Source of the DNA: an uncultured Acidobacteriota bacterium
GTDB taxonomy: Bacteria; Acidobacteriota; Blastocatellia; RBC074
Reading direction: 5' to 3'
NCBI GenBank assembly: GCA_963813345.1
Contig: CAWEYR010000014.1
Coordinates: 66,874 to 130,873, forward strand
Length of the DNA stretch: 64,000 nt
The position numbers and the translations under genes were made by a program. This document shows positions 1-14,360 of the stretch, piece after piece (the stretch's first letter is position 1; each line of letters starts with the position of its first letter). Under the pieces are notes generated by a model. That model had not been told where the DNA came from, did not search any database, and saw only the letters and a program-made list of their open reading frames with translations.

Positions 1-269
1 AATAGATGACAAAAGCGTCAAAGATGTTTACGTGATTACATACGAAAAAGCTCGTGCGCTCGGCGATCAAAGCCCGGCGCATAGCGCACCTCAAAATCGA
101 CTCCGGCAACCCTCAGAATATTTCGAAAGAACCATCGCTGAGGCCGGTCGTTTCGTCGAGGATCAATGAAAATCCCGATGAGTACGAGAATGCTGCAAAC
201 GGGAAAGAAGTGAAGAGCGCTCAGTATCCAGACGAGGACAGCGCGGATCGTATAGTATGCCTGCTTCAT
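1..269 (-). CDS. PlsC/LPLAT-family 1-acylglycerol-3-phosphate acyltransferase-like protein. 5' part only; runs off the window start. Frame broken near 40-75.
   Basis: ORF 36..269 gives a hydrophobic N-terminus. After its stop, the neighbouring frame reads [16 protein letters not shown], which carries the NHxxxxD acyltransferase motif. ATGA start/stop overlap with the upstream lipid kinase at 266-269. Confidence 0.6.
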
Positions 270-1165: not shown

Positions 1166-2883
1166 AACTCTTGAAGCGCAGTGCTTCGATCGAAGCGATT
1201 GCGGATTGCCTCGGCGAGCGCAAAGCGTTTGATCTTCATCGACGCAGTCCGCGGGAACTCTTCGTTCCAGATTACGTAACCACTCAGGCGTTTGAAATTG
1301 AGAAGTTTGCGATTCCTCGCGAGAATCTCGTCACGAAGCGCGGGTGTCATCTCCTGACCGTCGTCGAGATGAACCACAATCACAAGCTTCTCGCCGAGCA
1401 TCGAACGCTCCGGCCAGATGTAGTTAGCCGCAAAGACACAGAACTCTTTGACCGGTAGACCTTCGAACGCGTTCTCGATATCTTCAGGATAGACGTTCTT
1501 TCCCTCTTCAGTGACGATCATGTTCTTGACACGACCTGAAAGCTGAAGATGACCCATCGAATCGAATCTTCCAAGATCACCGGTCAGCAGCCATCCATCA
1601 ACGATCGTTTCAGCCGTCAGCTCGGGATCGTCGAGGTAATGCGACATGACAGTCCTGCTGCGGATCGCAACCTGACCGATTCCATCTGAGTTTGCATCGA
1701 CGATCCTGACTTCCATTCCCGGCAGCGGCCGCCCGACTGTATCGGCACGAAACGGCTTCAAATCGTTGAGCGTCACGGCCGTCCCGGCCTCTGTGAGTCC
1801 ATACCCATTGGAAACCTGGATACCAAGGTCGTAGAAGAACTTTAGCGTTTCCGGGCTCATGAACGCGCCGCCAACAAAGAGCGTGCGCAGCTCGCCCCCA
1901 AATGCTGAGTGAACCTGCTTGAGCAACTTTCTGCTGAGCTCGAGGTTTGGCGCCTTTTTCGTCAGTGCGCGATTGAGCGCGATAAGCCGGTTGAGCACAA
2001 ATCTCTTTGACGCCGGAAGCGCTGCAAAGCGGGTTCTCAATCCTGTCTCGAGATTCTTGAGAACCATTGGCACAAGAGCCATGTAGGTAATGCGATATTT
2101 CGTGAAAGCCTCACGCACATATTCGGGTCTGAGTGTTCTTAGATGAACAACCGTCGCACCACATACGAAAGGCCCGACAAAACCAACCATGAAATCGATG
2201 GCGTGATTCGTTGGCAGGACACTCAGATACCGTACCCCCGGCCAGAACGGATAGAGCGAAGTAAGTGCGACGCATTGTTCAAGGTAGTTGTCGTGCGTGA
2301 GAATGCAGCCCTTCGGACGCCCGCCCGTCCCTGACGAGTAGACAATGCAAGCCCAGTCGCTGCGTTGGCGTGGCACAAAGGCCGGCTTTTCAGTTGATTC
2401 CCTGGACCTCGTATCCTCCCATCGAATGGCTCCGTACAAGTCAGCCTTCTCTGGGGCGTCGGTCACGATCACGGTGGAGACTTTGAGTGCGGCAAACTCC
2501 GGAAGTGAGGCGATTGCCCGCCAGATATGATACTCGGTGATGAGCACCTCAGCCTTTGAGTGCTTGAGCAGCGTGATGTGCTCGCCGGGCGTCAGCTTGT
2601 AGTCGAGCGGTACGAGGACGCCACCGGAGTAGAAGACGGCATACGCTGCGATCAACCAGCGCGATTGATTCGTCATTATGATTGCAGCGCGCGATCCGTT
2701 GCCGAACGACCGATTCTGTAGGAATCCAGCCAGCGGCAGAGCAGCGTCTCTGAACTGACGATATGTGAGTTGATGATTCTCGCGTTCGCGATCGGCTTCG
2801 ATCAGACACACCTCGTCTGCAAACTGTTCGAGGGCATCCGTAAGGGCTTCACCGAGCGAGTGATACTTCGTCAGGTCCAGCAT
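1162..2883 (-). CDS. AMP-dependent synthetase/ligase (fatty acyl-AMP/CoA/ACP ligase)
   Basis: 573-aa ORF with [22 protein letters not shown] and GRVKNM adenylate-forming motifs. It lies directly downstream of, and is coupled to, the ACP gene. Confidence 0.9.
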
Positions 2884-3125
2884 CAGAGTCGTGATTGGAT
2901 GCGCTCGGCCAGCGTGCGGAAGTCCGATACACCTTGAACTTCGTAGTCCGGGAGCTCGATGCGGAAGTGATTCTCGAGGCGCGTAAGCAGCTCGAGTGCC
3001 TGAAGACTGTCGATCTTCAAGGTCTTGAAGAAGTCATCTGTCGGGCTGAGCTGTTCGCGCGGCACCTTAAAGTGGTTTGACGCAAGCGTCAGAATCTGGT
3101 CAACCGTGTTATCAATGTTCGTCAT
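2883..3125 (-). CDS. Acyl carrier protein
   Basis: The last 80 codons of ORF 2883..3356, starting at the ATG at 3125, carry the [11 protein letters not shown] phosphopantetheine-attachment motif. The upstream part of that ORF is translated repeat sequence. Confidence 0.85.
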
Positions 3126-3177
3126 TTCAACTAACTCTGCCGCGGAGCGGCTTATTGATCCTGGCCACGTTCGAGCT

Positions 3178-3410
3178 GCGAAGCAGCGAATCACCGCGGA
3201 GCGGTGCGAGAACGTAGCCAGGGGTTGAGTCTTCGAAACCCCTGGAATCGATTCCATTGACCAATCGCATCCCGGAGGGATGCGAGAAAGAGCGGGTTGC
3301 ATCGAATATCGTTTCTCGCATCCCTCGCAGGGATCGGCACTACTCGCACAACGCAATCCAGGGGTTTCGAAGACTCAACCCCTGGCTACGATCTTTGACG
3401 CCTCCGGCGT
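3178..3410. repeat. Composite palindromic REP/MITE-like element (family E)
   Basis: About 68 nt (3178-3245, including the hairpin CCAGGGGTTGAGTCTTCGAAACCCCTGG) recur inverted at 3358-3390. Inner hairpins: TCGCATCCCGGAGGGATGCGA at 3265-3285 and GACGCCTCCGGCGTC near 3396-3410. A near-identical composite lies at 59611-59855. Confidence 0.8.
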
Positions 3411-3444
3411 CAAGCGAATCCATACACCAAACTCAGCAAACTTC

Positions 3445-4249
3445 TCATGGCAGGTACGGATGAGCGTCTGTGCTCTCGACAAATTTCTGCAAGCCTGCCT
3501 GCACGGCAGGTTTACGATACAATTCGCAAAACAGGTCCACCTCGCGCCGAAGTTCTGTGTAGGGAACCGGTTTCATGAATCCTTTCGCCGCTTTGCTCGT
3601 AGCTCGGTCAAATTTGCCAGTCTGAACCGAAGCCAACCTTGCGAGTTTCAGAGACTCACCCTCGGCTGCGACCTGGCTCACCAGGCCGAGGGCATGCGCG
3701 CGCGTCGCATTAATGCTTCGGCCCGTTAGTAATAAATCTCGTACGATCGCGTTTCCGAGATCACGACGTAACCTCGGTATTCCACCAAATCCCGGAATCA
3801 GCCCGAGCCGCAACTCCGGAAAACAGAAGCGAGCCATTTTGTCGGCGATGATCAAATCGCAAACAAGTGCCAGTTCAAACCCACCGCCGAAACAGACTCC
3901 GTGTACGGCGGCAATCGTGGTCAGGCTGCTCGAATCGATCGCGTTGAGAACCTTGTGGATGCGCTCGAGAAAGCCCCGCACGCCAGTCGCCGCGTCCTCG
4001 TCTGAAAGCTCCCTGCCTGCGAAATAGAGTTCACGGAGATCGGCACCAGCGCAGAAGCCGGGCTGTCATACGGCTGTAAATGATCATCGCGTGCGCGCTC
4101 TTTTCGAGCTCTTCGAGCGCACCTGCAAATACCTCGAGTTCACCAAGCGTCTCTGTTCCGATCTCATTACAGGGTGCCCGATGCAATGCGACTTCTACGC
4201 ATCCCTCGTTGACGCTCCAACTGATGGCGTTTCCTTCAAAGCTTGTCAC
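3445..4249 (-). CDS. Enoyl-CoA hydratase/isomerase (crotonase) family protein. Frame broken between 4034 and 4065.
   Basis: ORF 4031..4249 is the N-terminus, ending AMIIYS. The frame of ORF 3445..3981 continues upstream as [16 protein letters not shown], the crotonase oxyanion-hole region. The two frames are offset by one nucleotide. Confidence 0.8.
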
Positions 4250-5966
4250 GCTCCGCGTAACTCCTCGGCTTCCTGTTTCTCCTGCTGTCGAGCCTGATAC
4301 ATACCTTCGATCTCTGTTTTGAAAAACTCCGCAATCGAGCCGCGCTTCAGCTTGCCGTTAGCCGTCAACAGTCCGCTCTCGATTGTCAGCGGTTCCTTGC
4401 GAATATGATAGCCACGAACCTGACGATAGTGCGGCATTGCCGAGTTGACAGTTTCAAGCGCAGAACCAACGCTCGCGGTGTCGACATCACCTGTAATGAT
4501 CGCCGTCAGGAATCCTCTACCATTTCCATGAAGGACGACGTTGCTTGCTTTTGGCAATGCCTGTCTGATCTGTTCTTCGATAGGTTCCGGCGCGATGTTG
4601 TGACCCGAACCCAGAATGATCAGATTCTTGATCCGGCCGATGACAGCCCAGTTGCCACGCTCGTCGACCTCTCCCTGGTCGCCTGTGTGAAACCATCCGT
4701 CTGGGATCGAAGCACGAGTCTCCTCGGGCCGGTTCCAATAGCCCTTGAATACGTTGGGTCCGCGTACGAGAATCTCGTCGTTTTCGCCCAACCGCATTTC
4801 TACGCCAGGAATAGCCGGACCAACGCGACCCGGTTCGTAATCGAGCGGATCGTCCATGGTACAGATCGCTGTCGTTTCGGTCAGCCCATAAACCTGTAGA
4901 ACCGGGATGCCGAGCATCATAAAGAACGACTGCGTTTCTTTCGATAGTGGGGCCGACCCGCAGATCAGGGCCTTCAAATTGACGCCGATCTTTTTCCTGA
5001 TTGAATCGAAAATCAGGCGCTGGCCAAGAGACTGCCAGACCATTCCGCTTACGCTCGCGATGCCCATCACGGTTTGCAAGCCACGCGGCTTTGCTTTTCG
5101 CGTAGAGCGTCTTTATCCAGTCCGGTTTCTGTGCAATCTGACCCTCAACACCCGTCCTGATGCGTTCGAGCAGGGCTGGAACATTCAAACAGTATTGAGG
5201 CGATGCAAGCTTGAGCTCATCTGCCAGTTTCTCGAGATTTGTTGAAAGCGTCAGAAGGCTGTTGCGGAGGAGACAAGAAAGAAGCAGTATCCACGATCCA
5301 GCGAAGCAGAAGGGAAGATAGTGAAAGACCTGTTCGGCTGCGGTCTGGCCCTGCATCAGCCTGTCGAGGCGGGCGCCCGTGCACGAAAGCATGTGATTCA
5401 CATTCCCGACATCGAGCACCACACCCTTCGGAACACCTGAGGTGCCTGAAGTGTAGATAATCGAAACCGGATCGCTATCTGCAAGCGGGCTCAATGTGAG
5501 GCTCTTGAGGGGCTTTGCCCGCGACTGAAGCTGGGAACATCTCGTCAAACAATGCAATACGTGGCAACGTAATCGCTGGCAACGCGACATCTGACGCGTC
5601 ACTCCACGCACTTCGTATTGAATCGGCCAGGGTATTTGTGTCAGAGAGGATGAGCGATACCCCTGCGTCCTTCATCATAAAGACGAGCTCGGCTGGAGCT
5701 TGTCGAGCGTACAGCGGCACCACAATGATACCTTCGGCCATGAGCGCGAGGTCAGCTGCTACCCAGCGAATGCTGTTCCCGGCGAGCAGAGCGCAGCGAT
5801 CGCCTTTCTTGAGACCCGTTGACCGCAGAAACTTGCGCGCGGCTTCAACCTGATCGGATAATCCCAGGCCATTTACAGTGACCAGCGCACCATCTCGCAC
5901 TTCGCGCAGAATGGCATCATTGGGGCTGGTAACCAGGCGATCGAATATCTTTTCGAGGAAGTTCAT
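4246..5966 (-). CDS. Long-chain acyl-CoA synthetase-like AMP-ligase. Two frame breaks (about 5055-5085 and 5480-5560).
   Basis: Three consecutive pieces. ORF 5475..5966 is the N-terminus. The upstream part of ORF 4517..5611 carries [16 protein letters not shown] 4246..5079 carries YGLTETT, GWFHTGD and GRIKNLI. Confidence 0.85.
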
Positions 5967-7375
5967 CCGTAGTTCTCGAGAATACGCTGGAGCGTCGGAG
6001 TCAGCGGTGGGAGGTAATCATCCCAGGTTCTGGCACCAGGACGCACCGGGAAATCCGGATAGCATTCGAGGAGCTGCTGTTCAAAAAAGACGCCCATATG
6101 AGCGAGCACCTTGAGGTTGCGGGCTACCGTCTTGCCGATGCCCTCGCGAATGCCTTCGTGTTCCGAAAGCAGCCTGCGCATGATGACCACCAGTTTCTCT
6201 TCAAGCTCCGGGTCGTCAACAGTGAGCATGAGATCAGAGTGTCCGCGTTCGTGCATCAGATTGCGAATCCGCTCATCCATTGTTACCCCTGCAGAGGCTA
6301 CAAAAGCGGGCATGCACGTGACGATGCCATGAAACCGCGAAGAAACCATAAGGTGAGCCTCGCGAAGAATACTGACAAGCTGATACATGTCATACTCCGC
6401 GGACCAGAAAACCGGCACCCCGCCGAGCCTCTCTGACATCCTTCGGCAGGCGTCAATATCGAGGCTTTCCATCGCTACCAGAACTACAAATACATTGTGC
6501 TCCCGGCGGAAACGCTCGACCGCATTCGACATTGCAGAAAGATAGTTCTCGTAGGCGGAGGTCACTTTGGGTCCCGAATTATGGAAGTAGACCGAGCGGT
6601 AGTGGCTCTCTTTGTAGGCTCCAGTCAGGGTTTTTGCGGCAAGTTTTGCGACCGATGCCTTTACCGGCCACCAAAACGGGTTGATAGGACAGACGGCCAT
6701 AACAGGAGTCGATTCATCCCATCCGGAGTCGCGCAACGCCTTGCGGCCAAAGTCTGAAGCCAGAGGCTCGAATGTCCAGGCGGTATCGGTGCCAAGTTCG
6801 GTCGCAACGCCAAGTTTGCCGAGTACAGTTTGCGACTCCTGGTTTCTCGTTATGATCATGGACTGCTTGCAATATCGTGAACACATGTTTGCAAGGGTCG
6901 GATCCATATACCCGGCCTCTGCGCCGTAGCCAATACTCAACTTGTTCTGAGCCGCAGCAATGCCGAGCGACCCGATCATCATCGTTGTCAACGCATTCGC
7001 AAACTTGCTCTTGAACATCGAGCCTTCACACGCGACTACTCCATCATGCTTTGGCACTTCCGAGTAAAGAAACGGTGGAAATATCTGCGGCAGCTCGACC
7101 TGTCTGATGCCATTGAAATAACCGCGCGTCAGCTCGGGATTGTGAGTCAATACACTCAATTCGGAATGGTCATCACCCAGTATGCGCCGGATCTGGCGGA
7201 GCATCTCTTCTACACGCACGTCCGAGCCGGTGTTGCGAGTGCCATTGTAACCCGTAAAAAGCAGCCGCAATTTGCGTCCGGGCTTCCATCGCTGGCCGGA
7301 CCCGAGCATCCATTTGACCTTCGAAAGCTCAACGAGGCCGCTGACCCATGCCTCGAGAGCGAGATCCATACTCAT
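5963..7375 (-). CDS. Polysaccharide-pyruvyl-transferase-like protein (PF04230-like)
   Basis: 470-aa intact ORF. An N-terminal [12 protein letters not shown] motif and a C-terminal SSRFHGIV...GV pattern resemble the pyruvyl transferase family. This is recognition by eye, not an HMM hit. ATGA overlaps at both ends. Confidence 0.6.
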
Positions 7376-11128: not shown

Positions 11129-11521
11129 GTGTTCAAAACGTTGCGTGCAGGCTTCTTGCTGGTTCTGGCTCTCTGCCAGATAGCTCCGGCCGTCGCCCTG
11201 ATGCAGCCGCCGGCGGTGACCTGCGGAATGGAGTGTTGCCTCGAGAGCGGCGTCGAATGCTGCGTCGTTCAGCATCGCGACGGTGTTGATTCCCACGAAA
11301 GCAAAGTCTCCGCAACCAGAATTACTTCGCCCTGTCCTTCCAACTGTGCCCTCATATCGGCAGGATTTCAGCGTGTCGCTCTTAACTCCGGGCCTCGCGC
11401 CGTGTCGCTCTCTTATGTTGCAACGGCCCTCGTAATTGCTGATCAATTCCCCGGCTTTGAGCGAGATCCTCTGATCATTGGCTCCGTCGCACCTCGCAGC
11501 CCTCCATATAGTCTTTGCTGA
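11129..11521 (+). CDS. Hypothetical small secreted cysteine-rich protein
   Basis: 130-aa ORF with a GTG start, a signal-peptide-like N-terminus (FLLVLALCQIAPAVA) and a CGMECCLESGVECC cluster. Third-position G+C looks coding-like. An antisense ORF (11102..11446) competes with it. Confidence 0.35.
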   Translation: MFKTLRAGFLLVLALCQIAPAVALMQPPAVTCGMECCLESGVECCVVQHRDGVDSHESKVSATRITSPCPSNCALISAGFQRVALNSGPRAVSLSYVATALVIADQFPGFERDPLIIGSVAPRSPPYSLC

Positions 11522-14360
11522 AAATTCGATACGTCAATTGGACAAAGCAGATCTGCGGTGGAACCAGCGGGGTGGTGCGGTGTTCCGTGTACGTTGGGTT
11601 GTCGATAGCTGTTTACTTGTGCGTCTTTGGCTTTCCGTCTTTTGCACAGTCCGTCAGTTCCGCAAACTTGACAGGACTCGTACAGGACGGAAGCGGTAGT
11701 GTCATAGCAGCAGTTCGCATGACGGCGATCAATCTTGAGAAGAACCAGCAGTGGTTTACTACAACCGATTCTCAGGGGCGCTATCATTTTCTTTATGTTC
11801 CGGTGGGGCGTTATCAGCTTCGTGCCGAAAAGGATGGGTTCCAACCTGTAGAGCACAAGATCACGCTTACAATCGGACAGTCGCTCGAAGTGCCAATCCG
11901 TCTCATCGTTCGAGGCATAACGGAACAGGTGAACGTGACCGGTGAATTGCCGCTTCTTGAGTCAACCAGATCAGAGCTTGCCGAAACCATCCTTACACGC
12001 GAAGTTGATAGCCTTCCGCTCAACGGTCGAAACTATCTCGATCTTGCGGCTTTGACTCCGGGTGTCTCGCGTGGGAATCCGGTAGGGAATCAACGCTTCG
12101 CTGAAACGTCTGCAGTGCCAGGTACGCAGATATCCGTAGCTGGTCAACGAAACATCAACAACGGTTTCATAATCGATGGGCTTTCGGGAAATGATGATGC
12201 CGCTGATTTGCCGGGAACTTTCTTCAGCCAGGAGGTCATAAGGGAGTTTCAGGTCATTCCTTCCGGAGGCGTCGCCGAATTCGGCCGTGCGTCAAGTGGT
12301 ATTGTCAACGTCGTTACGCAATCGGGAGGCAACGCCTGGCACGGTCGTTTCTATGGCTTCCTGCGCAATCAAAGGGTGGATGCGCGGAACCCGCTCGCGC
12401 AAACGAAAGACCCGCTAACACAGGCTCAGTACGGGGCGACCGCCGGTGGGCCAATTATTCCCGGAAAGACATTCGTTTTCGGCAATTTTGAACAGACACG
12501 ACTGAACAACTCGGCAGTAGTCACAATCCAGCCGGCCAACGTAATAGCCATCAACAATGTTCTCGATCAAATCGGTTTGTCGAGTGCGCGTATTGCGACA
12601 GGTATTGTCCCAACCGGATATGACTCGACCAACGTTCTTTTAAAGGTTGATCATCGATTGAATGATGCGAACATGCTGGCTGCGCGTTATAGCTTCTATG
12701 ACATAGACAGCTTCAATGCGCGTAGCGTTGGCGGGTTGAATGCCGAGACTCGCGGAACTGCGCTTGTGAATCGTGACCAGACGGTGGCTTTGAGCGGGCT
12801 GACAACATTCTCGAGTCGGACGGCAAATGAACTCAGGCTGCAGTTCACGCGAAGCCGGCTTGGAGCACCTCCCAACGATTTGGTTGGCCCGGCAATCAAT
12901 ATTGCCGGGATCGCGAATCTGGGCACGTCGACTACATCGCCAACCCGGCGCGACATAGACCTCTTCGAGATCGTTGACAACATCACACTGTTGAAGGGTG
13001 ACCACTCGATCAAAGTGGGCATCGATTTTCTCTACAACAGGATCAACATAGGATTTCCTGGTGCGCTCCAGGGCGCGTATAACTTTTCGTCGATCGCCAA
13101 TTTCCGTTCGGGCACATACACACAGTTTCAGCAGGCGTTCGGCGATCCAATTCAATTTCAATCGAACCCCAATCTCGGCATTTTTGTTCAGGATCAATGG
13201 CGAGTAAACCGGACAGTGACTGTCAATGCCGGGCTCCGTTACGACTTGCAATGGCTGCCTGATCCGATTGGAACGGACGCGAACAATGTGGCGCCGCGGC
13301 TGGGGATAGCATGGGCGCCGAACGGCGGGAGTCTTGTAGTTCGAGCAAACTACGGAATCTATTTCGAGCGTATTCCGTTGAGAGCGACATCGAATGCGCT
13401 TCAACGTGATGGATCGAAGTACCGCGTGGCGCTTTTCACATTTGGCCAGACGGGTGCACCGACATTCCCGCAGGTTGCAAGCTCGTATCCGCAAGGATTT
13501 CTGCCGAGTGTAACGACGATTGATCCTTCGATCGACAACGCATACTCGCAACAAGCCAGCCTGCAGCTGGAAAAGAGTTTGACTTCGAACACGACATTGT
13601 CAGCGGGTTACCTGTATACCCGCGGACTGCACTTGATACTGCAGCGTAATGTGAACGTCCCAAGGTTTCCCGCATCGGCAGGCGTTCCAAACCTTGGCCG
13701 GCCAAACCCGAACTACGCAAATATCACTCGCTACGAGAGCTCAGGTGATTCGTATTATCACGGAATGGCAGTCTCGCTGAGCCGTCGATTCAGCCAGTGG
13801 TTTGGCGCACGACTCTCCTATACTCTTTCAAAAGCGATCGACAATACGGGCAATGCTTTTTTCTTTCACGCCGCAGGATAACTTCAATCTCCGAGATGAC
13901 CGTGGGCTGGGAGATAATGACCAGCGGCATTTGCTCGCTGTGAGCGGTACGCTTGAAGCCGCTTTCGCGGATGACGAAAACATCTGGAAGCGAATACTTT
14001 CCGGATTCCAGGCGAGTTATGTCTTTCGATATGGTTCTGCCCTGCCATTCAATATCGTGACGGGAACTGATCGGAACAACGATACGAACGTCAACGATCG
14101 CCCCGTAGGCGTTGGACAGAAACACCGGGCGAGGATTCGACTTTGCGGCGCTCGACTTGCGCCTCAGTCGACAAATCCGCTTGAGCGAGAGATTCAGGTT
14201 GGATGTCATCGCCGAAGCATTCAACATATTCAACCGAGCTAATTACCAGATCCCGAATAACACGTTTGGACCCGGCACTGTTCCTCCGCCCGCGTTTGGC
14301 CGGCCAACAGCTGCCGCTGATCCAAGACAGATCCAATTTGGTCTGAGGATCGTCTATTGA
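11515..14360 (+). CDS. TonB-dependent receptor with N-terminal carboxypeptidase-regulatory-like domain (Oar-like). Two frame breaks (13857-13866 and about 14108-14116).
   Basis: ORF 11515..13881 has a signal peptide plus the DGSGSVIAAV...GRYQLRAEKDGF CarboxypepD_reg pattern. It continues in ORFs 13802..14242 and 14112..14360, which end in the outer-membrane-barrel-type terminus QFGLRIVY. The first break sits in a T6 run (13857-13862). The start may be the GTG at 11572. Confidence 0.85.

Follow-up and report, generated by a model that had tools for sequence, protein, structure and literature searches.

AGPS forms sn-1 ethers by exchanging the acyl group on DHAP for an alcohol. PlsA/Ger, which also leads to alkyl ether glycerolipids, reduces existing esters under anoxic conditions (PMC13159169). 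How ether bonds are formed in aerobic Acidobacteria, those of brGDGT precursors (paleoclimate proxies) included, is unresolved, and the only candidate so far is the elb cluster reported from some subdivision-4 genomes, whose ether-forming step is itself unknown (PMC13159169, PMC11868695, PMC10087280). This elbB-elbE ether-lipid cluster was described in Myxococcus xanthus (Lorenzen et al. 2014, as reviewed in PMC9131029) and has been reported also in subdivision-4 Acidobacteria (PMC13159169).

A second group of described proteins is relevant here. CsaB of Paenibacillus alvei, WcaK of Escherichia coli, and Pvg1p of Schizosaccharomyces pombe belong to the PF04230 superfamily and have a GT-B-like fold. 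In characterized PF04230 members, vicinal or 4,6-diols are the sites of ketal formation (PMC10435577, PMC6801904), and the use of PEP by CsaB is lost or altered when R148, H308, or K328 is mutated (PMC10435577). MurA, the UDP-GlcNAc enolpyruvyl transferase whose product is reduced by MurB, joins PEP to a single hydroxyl to give an enolpyruvyl ether (summarized in PMC10435577).

We analyzed a 64,000-nucleotide stretch of DNA, hereafter the window, from an uncultured soil bacterium of the Acidobacteriota (assembly GCA_963813345.1, contig CAWEYR010000014.1, positions 66,874 to 130,873), in which a pyruvyl-transferase-like gene lies among genes of lipid metabolism. The encoded enzyme probably acts in a lipid pathway not yet described, joining a PEP-derived three-carbon unit to a fatty alcohol by a mechanism that we infer below.

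A Pyruvyl-Transferase-Like Gene Within a Lipid Operon

As can be seen in Table 1, nine genes follow one another on the minus strand of the window. The pyruvyl-transferase-like gene is a single uninterrupted frame, and it is joined to its neighbors at both ends by ATGA overlaps: at 7372-7375 the overlap is between its ATG, preceded by a GGAG some 12 nt away, and the TGA of the reductase gene, while at 5963-5966 its own TGA overlaps the ATG of the first AMP ligase. Start/stop overlaps are also found in the closest relative and in two more distant relatives.

Table 1. Genes of the operon in the window, in order of transcription
Feature	Coordinates	Strand	Remarks
HAD-like domain + alcohol-forming FAR (NAD_binding_4 + Sterile), 805 aa	8516..10933	-	Operon's first gene
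Stand-alone thioester reductase (SDR, NAD_binding_4), 378 aa	7372..8508	-	Stop overlaps start of pyruvyl-transferase-like gene
Pyruvyl-transferase-family enzyme, PF04230-like, GT-B fold, 470 aa	5963..7375	-	Proposed PEP-dependent C3 transferase on lipid alcohol
Long-chain acyl-CoA-synthetase-like AMP ligase (FadD11-like, AMP-binding_C_3)	4246..5966	-	Three frames here
Enoyl-CoA hydratase, crotonase fold	3445..4249	-	PF00378, 110 bits
Acyl carrier protein (ACP), about 80 aa	2883..3125	-	PF00550
Second AMP ligase, 573 aa	1162..2883	-	Directly behind ACP; PF00501, 239.8 bits
YegS/BmrU-type lipid kinase (DAGK_cat + YegS_C), 299 aa	266..1165	-	
PlsC-type acyltransferase, N-terminal part	1..269	-	Runs off window; tblastn with 253-aa PF01553 orthologue

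The assignments of the flanking genes rest on profile matches. The HAD-FAR protein matches PF12710, PF07993 (187 bits), and PF03015, and the thioester reductase matches PF07993 (155.9 bits) and TIGR01746 (138 bits). An 80-aa ACP orthologue covers 3125..2886 at 82% identity in a tblastn search; the listed ORF of this gene, 2883-3356, starts at an upstream TTG. Three genes are interrupted, at positions that DNA alignments to relatives about 70% identical give approximately: the first ligase is spread over the frames 5475-5966, 4517-5611, and 4246-5079, with breaks near 5485-5640 and near 5066, the hydratase occupies two frames with one break near 4070, and the acyltransferase stub changes frame near 58. 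In the closest relative all three are intact (549, 267, and 253 aa, respectively), and in the intact hydratase orthologue the oxyanion sequence GFCAGADL is present, as are the two motifs with the catalytic Glu residues (GGGFELAL and FPELRLG). The breaks are probably assembly errors; if they were real, the operon would be decaying in this genome.

Besides the lipid genes, the neighbors in the window are a TonB-dependent receptor, a BNR-like protein, a molybdoenzyme, and a PLD-like gene. The operon contains no sugar-nucleotide genes, either here or in the closest relative, and there are no glycan genes in the gene lists examined, which cover this locus and some related ones. A sequence-only reading of the window had described an intact 470-aa ORF, coupled on both sides, in a lipid operon free of polysaccharide genes. 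The frame and its setting are borne out, the flanking genes being those for FAR, thioester reductase, ligases, ACP, lipid kinase, and, often, PlsC. The coupling stands as regards the overlaps at both ends, but the downstream AMP ligase is not one open frame here.

Conserved PEP-Binding Residues on a GT-B Scaffold

The 470-aa protein is a member of the pyruvyl transferase superfamily. It matches PF04230 with 33.4 bits, above the gathering cut-off of 25.3, and TIGR03609 (CsaB) with 67.5 bits over residues 38-379, which is far from the equivalog cut-off of 213.1 bits. Among 60 diverse relatives, 55 match PF04230 in a Pfam search (best E 1.2e-17) and none matches another Pfam family. When the family is aligned by hhalign with E. 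coli WcaK, the probability is 96.9% (E 1.7e-10). The sequence-only reading, which had noticed the resemblance to polysaccharide pyruvyl transferases in SSRFHGIV and in a second segment, is thus in agreement with these matches, and both segments are present. A sequence search of the PDB with the single protein found no match, and a search with the family profile found Pvg1p at E 2.1 only.

The PEP-binding residues of the PF04230 family are kept. R177, D197, P237, D306, H349, and D367 are invariant across the 60 relatives, which share 25-79% identity, and R347 and R369 are nearly so (>90% conserved). The hhalign alignment places R177, R347-x-H349, and R369 on the Arg, Arg-x-His, and Lys of WcaK, which correspond by motif and spacing to R148, R306/H308, and K328 of CsaB; the spacing of 20 from the His to the basic residue is the same as in CsaB. 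In common with ketal-pyruvyl transferases, the protein thus has this Arg / Arg-x-His / Lys(Arg) PEP site, as well as the N-terminal G-Y-x-G-x-x-N-x-G motif (PMC10435577). Its length, however, exceeds that of CsaB, WcaK, or Pvg1p by some 70-140 residues, and the structural model shows extra N- and C-terminal helices. An insert of about 35 residues (229-268), in which the motifs N-P-F-W-W-P and H-Y / F-H are invariant, also sets it apart, these motifs falling where WcaK has gaps.

As for the structure, the predicted model (pLDDT 96.3) displays a two-domain GT-B fold. Its best structural matches, with Z scores of 19-21, are GT-B glycosyltransferases and UDP-GlcNAc 2-epimerases, including the lipid-acting PimA, whereas Pvg1p (5ax7_B) ranks 31st with the wider structural aligner (Z 16.6, rmsd 3.9 over 260 residues). 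The top 50 Foldseek matches in the PDB are generic GT-B enzymes and include no pyruvyl transferase. Since the GT-B fold is common to many glycosyltransferases, a fold match alone does not discriminate; what the model confirms is the fold, not the subfamily. The fold search proposed in the sequence-only reading consequently gave the GT-B fold without separating pyruvyl transferases from ordinary GT-B enzymes; neither it nor the profile searches placed the protein in an unrelated family. A predicted complex of the reductase with the pyruvyl-transferase-like enzyme scored 0.00 against a mark of 0.32, which speaks neither way on binding.

These structural matches, together with the modest Pfam score, would suit a GT-B scaffold that glycosylates or otherwise modifies the lipid using a donor other than PEP, for example a nucleotide sugar or a different phospho-donor, its resemblance to pyruvyl transferases reflecting ancestry only. 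We find this improbable given that sequence profiles match only PF04230 and CsaB, that four PEP-binding positions are conserved and aligned with those of WcaK, and that the operon is devoid of sugar-nucleotide genes.

Conservation of the Operon

The best 80 matches of a locus scan with a 12-sequence alignment, all from acidobacterial metagenome-assembled genomes, have the genes in the same order: HAD-FAR, thioester reductase, pyruvyl-transferase-like gene, ligase, hydratase, ACP, ligase, and lipid kinase. When only loci reaching far enough are counted for each gene, the HAD-FAR lies upstream in 62/62, the thioester reductase directly upstream in 72/72, the first AMP ligase is found in 73/73, the enoyl-CoA hydratase in 66/66, and the lipid kinase in 47/54, while PlsC is detectable in 18/54. 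Co-occurrence with FAR and PlsC genes, a check proposed in the sequence-only reading, holds in these loci without exception for FAR but in a minority for PlsC.

The gene also occurs in 49 of 401 Myxococcota genomes, and several of the operon's carriers in this phylum have closed chromosomes. The 12 Myxococcota loci that we examined have the operon in a full or partial version, with the thioester reductase directly upstream in all 12 and both the kinase and an acyltransferase in seven; the first AMP ligase is absent from three of them and from a Myxococcales locus (L095). A relative that is 48% identical is likewise accompanied by the full operon, kinase and acyltransferase included. The most constant neighbor, even in minimal clusters, is the reductase gene. 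In one variant cluster, a FabK/NMO-type enzyme takes the place of the hydratase beside the reductase and the pyruvyl-transferase-like enzyme, a thioesterase being the only other lipid-related gene. Some relatives of 27-50% identity lie in nonlipid contexts, next to a TPP enzyme with an AurF-like gene, to PEP carboxylase, or to no clear partner, and the acceptor is thus not fixed across the wider family.

Relatives are annotated in databases as "polysaccharide pyruvyl transferase family protein," and the gene could in principle encode an ordinary transferase for a polysaccharide or cell-wall polymer that adjoins lipid genes by chance of place. This is very improbable: the same lipid gene order is present in 80/80 acidobacterial loci and is repeated, complete or in part, in another phylum, the start/stop overlaps recur in relatives, and the TIGR03609 score is far below the equivalog level. 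Orthologues consistently next to exopolysaccharide genes, an outcome that would have spoken against the sequence-only reading, were not found, lipid genes flanking all 80 acidobacterial loci. Since, in contrast to the PF04230 ketal-pyruvyl transferases, the setting here is a lipid operon without glycan genes, the acceptor is probably not a sugar.

Relationship to the elb Cluster

Judged by gene content, the operon is related to, but not the same as, the elb cluster, from which it differs only in a small module. Both have a HAD, an alcohol-type FAR, an acyl-AMP ligase, an ACP, and a PlsC-type acyltransferase, both lack an alkyl-DHAP synthase, and the YegS-type lipid kinase that is part of this operon is found nearby in elb loci. 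However, FAR, ACS, ACP, and AGPAT are fused in ElbD (about 1,500 aa) and are separate genes here. In the genome of the window, the best match of a search with fused ElbD is the HAD-FAR gene only (E 6.7e-84, ElbD residues 26-567). The second AMP ligase shares 29-32% identity with the ACS part of fused ElbD proteins, of which, by this similarity, it is the counterpart.

The variable module consists here of the thioester reductase, the pyruvyl-transferase-like enzyme, the extra ligase, and the crotonase, whereas elb has a LarA-like (Lar_N) protein at the elbC position, which lies between the HAD gene and ElbD, followed by the NAD-dependent SDR ElbE. A LarA-like gene (PF09861, 124 bits) is near or directly upstream of ElbD in three of four Myxococcota and in all six Blastocatellia ElbD-type loci. 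There is none in the window, and the LarA homologue of this genome, 26% identical, is on another contig. The stand-alone reductase is 24-27% identical to genes at the ElbE position; a HAD domain is present but fused to the FAR. Orthology of the pyruvyl-transferase-like protein with ElbC was considered and rejected, the elbC position being LarA-like and the ElbD-type loci examined containing no relative of the protein.

In a class sample of 120 genomes, each at least 90% complete, the two systems are split by family. The pyruvyl-transferase-like gene is present in families f1 (21/30), f5 (3/3), f99 (5/5), and f3 (5/26), and full-length fused ElbD in f2 (31/31), f101 (7/7), and f98 (1/1); none of the 120 genomes has both, an exclusivity behind which there are few independent lineages. 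This family-level split and the LarA-like protein at the elbC position are new observations. The occurrence in different families and never in the same genome as ElbD suggests, from gene distribution, that the pyruvyl transferase operon is an alternative module to elb for a similar job.

Taken as a whole, the reading that we prefer, with a probability of roughly 0.4, is that the gene encodes a soluble enzyme of a distinct, strongly conserved PF04230 subfamily, with a GT-B fold and an intact PEP-binding site, that this enzyme has a fixed place in the nine-gene lipid operon and no role in polysaccharide decoration, and that it would catalyze a PEP-dependent step there, the operon being a functional alternative to the elbB-E of sister families.

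A Possible Route to Ether Lipids

In the scheme that we propose, the first ligase and the HAD-FAR would produce a fatty alcohol from a fatty acid, and to this alcohol the pyruvyl-transferase-like enzyme would transfer the enolpyruvyl group of PEP, as MurA does, yielding an O-alkyl enolpyruvate (2-alkoxyacrylate) and phosphate. Because such an acceptor would offer a single hydroxyl, the reaction would stop before ketal closure; we know of no PF04230 enzyme that stops at an enol ether or accepts a lipid. The second ligase would load the O-alkyl enolpyruvate on the ACP, the crotonase would hydrate its terminal double bond to give a 2-O-alkylglyceroyl thioester, and the thioester reductase would release this as 2-O-alkylglycerol, which, phosphorylated by the lipid kinase and acylated by the PlsC-type acyltransferase, would become an ether analogue of phosphatidic acid. 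Hydration by a crotonase is known for methacrylyl-CoA. PEP would thus be the donor, a fatty alcohol the acceptor, and an alkylglycerol the product. That the ether bond is made via enolpyruvate from PEP, the crotonase, ACP-ligase, and reductase then turning the pyruvyl moiety into the glycerol backbone, is a tentative part of our reading.

The likeness to MurA/MurB lies in the proposed chemistry only, in that a second enzyme acts on the C=C bond. MurA is unrelated in fold and family, our protein being GT-B and without an EPSP_synthase-type match in Pfam and NCBIfam searches; in addition, a lipid alcohol would serve as acceptor, and in the main operon the fate of the double bond would be hydration instead of reduction. 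The end would be the same as with AGPS and PlsA/Ger, an alkyl ether glycerolipid, but with a PEP-derived backbone and the ether at C2.

An alkylglycerol made from a PEP-derived C3 unit and a fatty alcohol had already been suggested in the sequence-only reading, whose scheme left the enoyl-CoA hydratase without a role. As it stood, that route requires an additional hydration step for the third oxygen, and the always-adjacent hydratase fits this. Moreover, since in enolpyruvyl transfer the new C-O bond is formed at C2 of the three-carbon unit, the expected outcome would be a 2-O-alkyl product rather than the 1-O-alkylglycerol of alkyl-DHAP synthase routes. 2-O-Monoalkylglycerols exist in bacteria (PMC5552659), whereas the acidobacterial monoethers that have been described are 1-O-alkyl (PMC10087280), in contrast to the predicted C2 ether.

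Two further features of the loci bear on the nature of the product. The first is the variant cluster: FabK/NMO-type enzymes and enoyl-CoA hydratases both act on alpha,beta-unsaturated acyl thioesters, and an activated enolpyruvyl ether would be one. The presence of a FabK/NMO-type enzyme parallels the MurA/MurB chemistry that leads to a lactyl ether and, along with the detection of PlsC in only 18 of 54 acidobacterial loci, would accord with an enolpyruvyl ether whose end product is no glycerolipid but an O-alkyl-lactate or O-alkyl-glycerate lipid acid, or the reduced alcohol, serving as surfactant, signal, or storage. We judge this quite unlikely for the operon as a whole. The lipid kinase is found in most acidobacterial loci, its pairing with an acyltransferase, seen in seven Myxococcota loci and beside the 48%-identical relative, indicates a product resembling phosphatidic acid, and six functions are common to the operon and the elb membrane-lipid cluster.

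The second feature is the dedicated lipid kinase, which would be needless with a glycerol-3-phosphate backbone and so implies an unphosphorylated lipid alcohol intermediate. It is also one of the components that sit poorly with a true ketal-pyruvyl transferase acting on a diol of a lipid made by the operon, where the C3 unit would be a decoration and the product pyruvylated and negatively charged; candidate acceptors would be the free 2,3-diol of a monoalkyl- or monoacylglycerol or a lipid-linked polyol head group. All characterized family members do form ketals (PMC10435577, PMC6801904), and the kept PEP-site residues and the lipid context hold equally for such an enzyme. Still, it appears unlikely, for it would leave the kinase unexplained, provide no role for the always-adjacent hydratase or the second ligase/ACP pair, and not account for the family-level exclusivity with the elb cluster.

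Significance

Our analysis identifies a second cluster type in the same class of Acidobacteria as elb, mutually exclusive with it in the class sample. The two share fatty-alcohol, carrier, kinase, and acyltransferase parts and differ in the module around a putative PEP-dependent transferase, which offers a concrete, testable biochemical hypothesis for ether-bond formation. A search of one literature library found no paper linking pyruvyl transferases with ether lipids. If the proposal is true, it would widen PF04230 chemistry from sugars to lipids and provide ether glycerolipids without oxygen, AGPS, or PlsA/Ger, on a backbone derived from neither glycerol phosphate nor DHAP. Many uncultured Acidobacteria and Myxococcota of soil would use such a route as the alternative to the elb pathway.

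The Target Gene Encodes an Intact Member of the Pyruvyl Transferase Family

The sequence-only reading described an intact 470-aa ORF, start/stop-coupled to an SDR reductase and an AMP-ligase. The ORF is indeed uninterrupted (470 open codons, minus strand) and contains both motifs that had been quoted from it. Its start codon and the stop codon of the preceding 378-aa gene share an ATGA, with a GGAG ~12 nt upstream, and its stop codon and the ATG of the following frame share another. Both couplings were therefore found, but the downstream AMP-ligase gene is not a single frame, since it lies in three frames in this assembly (5475-5966, 4517-5611, and 4246-5079). The enoyl-CoA hydratase behind it occupies two frames, the PlsC stub at the window edge also changes frame, and the TonB-dependent receptor beside the operon is split, which brings the breaks to five in ~14 kb, the AMP ligase accounting for two and each of the others for one. 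Because the receptor is split too, and because the genome is 82.9% complete in 33 contigs, these breaks are probably assembly indels rather than signs of decay. The AMP-ligase, hydratase, and PlsC genes are all intact in the closest relative (protein 79% identical).

Searches of Pfam with the target returned only PF04230 (33.4 bits, cut-off 25.3), the family proposed from the sequence, which is also matched by 55 of 60 relatives (25-79% identity), none of which matches another family. In NCBIfam, only the CsaB model matched, with 67.5 bits, far short of the 213.1 set as its equivalog cut-off. The relatives' alignment yielded an AlphaFold model of very high confidence (pLDDT 96.3, pTM 0.94), which has a two-domain GT-B fold. 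Among solved structures, it matches GT-B glycosyltransferases and UDP-GlcNAc 2-epimerases at Z 19-21 and Pvg1p, a pyruvyl transferase of yeast, at Z 16.6 (rmsd 3.9 over 260 residues). The fold search suggested in the sequence-only reading thus establishes the fold class of the target and not its subfamily.

For placing the target, we consider a profile-versus-sequence comparison decisive, in which its family matches WcaK, the colanic-acid pyruvyl transferase of Escherichia coli (96.9% probability, E 1.7e-10, 240 columns). In this alignment, R177, R347-x-H349, and R369 of the target correspond to an Arg, an Arg-x-His, and a Lys of WcaK, which by motif and spacing are R148, R306/H308, and K328 of CsaB. 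Mutagenesis of CsaB has shown that R148, H308, and K328 are required for PEP use and that K328R is still active (PMC10435577). As these PEP-site residues are conserved in the target family (R177 and H349 are invariant, R347 and R369 >90%), the target very probably still binds PEP. In contrast to WcaK, the family has a ~35-residue insert (229-268) with an invariant N-P-F-W-W-P and aromatic/His positions, which could plausibly be the site for a different, hydrophobic acceptor.

The Target Lies in a Conserved Lipid Operon

A scan of species-representative genomes identified relatives of the target in ~590 species, and neighborhoods were taken from the best 80. By identity and context, these are all acidobacterial MAGs (Blastocatellia, Terriglobales, and Acidiferrales), a few of the loci carrying other taxon labels. 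Where the contig suffices, the neighbors keep a common strand and a fixed order, and between-class protein identity is unusually high (64-76%). Across these loci, the co-occurrence with FAR and PlsC genes that had been proposed as a check is complete for HAD-FAR and partial for PlsC (see table).

Operon genes, frame-broken regions, and LarA-like genes. Plain coordinates are window positions, and L numbers are comparison loci. Presence is counted over loci among the best 80 whose contig extends far enough.
Feature	Product	Position	Strand	Presence
Operon gene 1	HAD-FAR, 805 aa		-	62/62
Operon gene 2	Thioester reductase, stand-alone, 378 aa		-	72/72
Operon gene 3	Target enzyme, 470 aa	5963..7375	-	
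Operon gene 4	Ligase 1, long-chain acyl-CoA-synthetase-like		-	73/73
Operon gene 5	Crotonase (enoyl-CoA hydratase)		-	66/66
Operon gene 6	ACP		-	56/60
Operon gene 7	Ligase 2		-	52/56
Operon gene 8	YegS-type lipid kinase		-	47/54
Operon gene 9	PlsC-type acyltransferase, beginning only	window edge	-	18/54
Frame-broken region	AMP ligase	4246-5966		
Frame-broken region	Crotonase	3445-4249		
Frame-broken region	PlsC	1-269		
Frame-broken region	TonB-dependent receptor	11515-14242		
elbC-position gene	LarA-like	L142:12952-14598	-	
elbC-position gene	LarA-like	L141:12801-14369		
elbC-position gene	LarA-like	L139:3-1205		
elbC-position gene	LarA-like	L148-L153, upstream of ElbD		

The sole sizeable gap in the operon (3126-3444, crotonase to ACP) contains a repeat element, within which the listed ACP start (3356) falls; 3125 is probably the true start. 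The operon of the closest relative is split between the HAD-FAR and reductase genes by an IS200/IS605 pair (Y1 transposase and OrfB/TnpB; L001:7031-8698).

Outside Acidobacteriota, the nine-gene operon is complete and tightly packed around a 48%-identical relative whose taxon is unknown, and the target gene occurs in 49 of 401 sampled Myxococcota genomes. Among 12 Myxococcota loci, the reductase is directly upstream in all 12, the crotonase is downstream in 11, and the set is complete through PlsC in seven. Ligase 1 is dispensable, since it is absent from three of these loci and from the Myxococcales locus L095, while ligase 2 and ACP are retained.

More distant relatives (27-50% identity) are found in other contexts, some adjoining a TPP enzyme and an AurF-like gene and others with no clear context. 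One has a minimal cluster of reductase, target relative, and FabK/NMO-type enzyme. A 50%-identical relative in Schlesneria paludicola (Planctomycetota) is solitary and immediately precedes the gene for a PEP carboxylase (L092:10001-14652), a weak hint of a tie to PEP metabolism. A distant branch (27-39% identity; Massilia aurea and a metagenome contig; L007:10001-14595 and L010:2393-7828) is coupled to a TPP-dependent enzyme, with AurF-like, DCC1-like, or luciferase-like genes close by, and looks like a separate small-molecule pathway with a pyruvyl unit.

The Target and Fused ElbD Occupy Different Families in a Class Sample

In Myxococcus xanthus, elbB-E are required for alkyl ether lipids, the function of elbC being unknown; the cluster is also present in subdivision-4 Acidobacteria, and how it forms the ether bond is unknown (PMC9131029, PMC13159169, PMC10087280). 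Fused ElbD, which combines FAR, AMP-ligase, ACP, and acyltransferase in ~1,500-1,600 aa, occurs in many Myxococcota genomes. Among 120 genomes of the window's class, each at least 90% complete, the target is present in families f1 (21/30), f5 (3/3), f99 (5/5), and f3 (5/26), all lacking full-length ElbD, and full-length ElbD is present in f2 (31/31), f101 (7/7), and f98 (1/1), where the target is absent (0/31, 0/7, and 0/1). No genome of the 120 has both, ~46 have neither, and the two occupy different families of the class, although kinship reduces this sample to a handful of lineages rather than 120 independent observations. Phylum-wide, the target is scattered, occurring in 14 of 399 good genomes, and a few Myxococcota have both cluster types.

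We rejected the idea that the target is ElbC, as the elbC position is taken by a LarA-like gene and the ElbD loci examined have no target relative, including the six in the window's class. These six all read HAD, LarA-like, ElbD, with ElbE downstream in five. In Myxococcota, a 548-aa LarA-like protein (Lar_N, 124 bits) is encoded near ElbD in three of four loci; in two of the three its gene immediately precedes ElbD, with the HAD gene immediately on the other side in one. The ~548-aa protein in this HAD, X, ElbD, ElbE order is 55-60% identical between Myxococcota and Blastocatellia. A nickel-pincer, "hidden redox" enzyme of this kind could supply the step missing from the elb pathway, either forming the ether or processing the backbone; among the literature matches listed, no paper unites LarA, lactate racemase, and ether lipid. 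The C terminus of ElbD has a weak match to the SCP2 sterol/lipid carrier (~20-21 bits, just below the cut-off of 21.3; L139:7813-12513 and L140:7803-12560), which is absent from the ElbD domains given in the reviews consulted.

The elb cluster and the target operon share HAD, FAR, ligase, ACP, acyltransferase, and lipid kinase but differ only in a small module, which is a LarA-like protein and an SDR in the former, and thioester reductase, target, optional ligase, and crotonase in the latter. Because LarA enzymes work on 2-hydroxy acids (PMC7583248), both modules may, by analogy, point to C3 alpha-oxy acid chemistry, a parallel that is suggestive and not evidence.

A Tentative Route to Alkylglycerol

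The route that we infer, in every step, would begin with FAR, supplied by ligase 1 or the cell's acyl-thioester pools, yielding a fatty alcohol. In the target, the single hydroxyl of this alcohol would attack PEP and, there being no second hydroxyl for closure, give an O-alkyl enolpyruvate rather than a ketal. MurA likewise ends at an enolpyruvyl ether, although we know of no member of the target family that acts on a lipid or halts at an enol ether. Ligase 2 would load the product on ACP as a 2-substituted acryloyl thioester, which has the shape of methacrylyl-CoA, a compound that crotonase is known to hydrate at the terminal carbon. The operon crotonase, which keeps the oxyanion motif together with the two catalytic glutamates, would then form a 2-O-alkylglyceroyl thioester, from which the thioester reductase would free 2-O-alkylglycerol. 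Lipid kinase and acyltransferase would turn this into the ether counterpart of phosphatidic acid. Such a route would assign a role to every operon gene; its release of 2-O-alkylglycerol would account for a kinase that acts on a free lipid alcohol, and it would explain how a FabK-type enzyme can replace crotonase in a variant cluster. The main rival, in which the target pyruvylates a lipid diol to a ketal, would retain the known chemistry of the family but leave crotonase, the ligase 2/ACP pair, and the kinase without a role. The alkylglycerol route would place the ether at C2, unlike the 1-O-alkyl acidobacterial monoethers named in PMC10087280; 2-O-monoalkylglycerols are known from bacteria (PMC5552659).

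What was first seen in the sequence thus stands, and the interpretation given to it is borne out in part, the passage from fatty alcohol to alkylglycerol being a conjecture that we rate as less likely than not. We put at about 0.6-0.7 the probability that the target is a PEP-dependent transferase acting on a lipid of this operon. Within a known enzyme family, we class it as a new subfamily associated with lipids, whose conserved operon is a parallel to the elb ether-lipid cluster.
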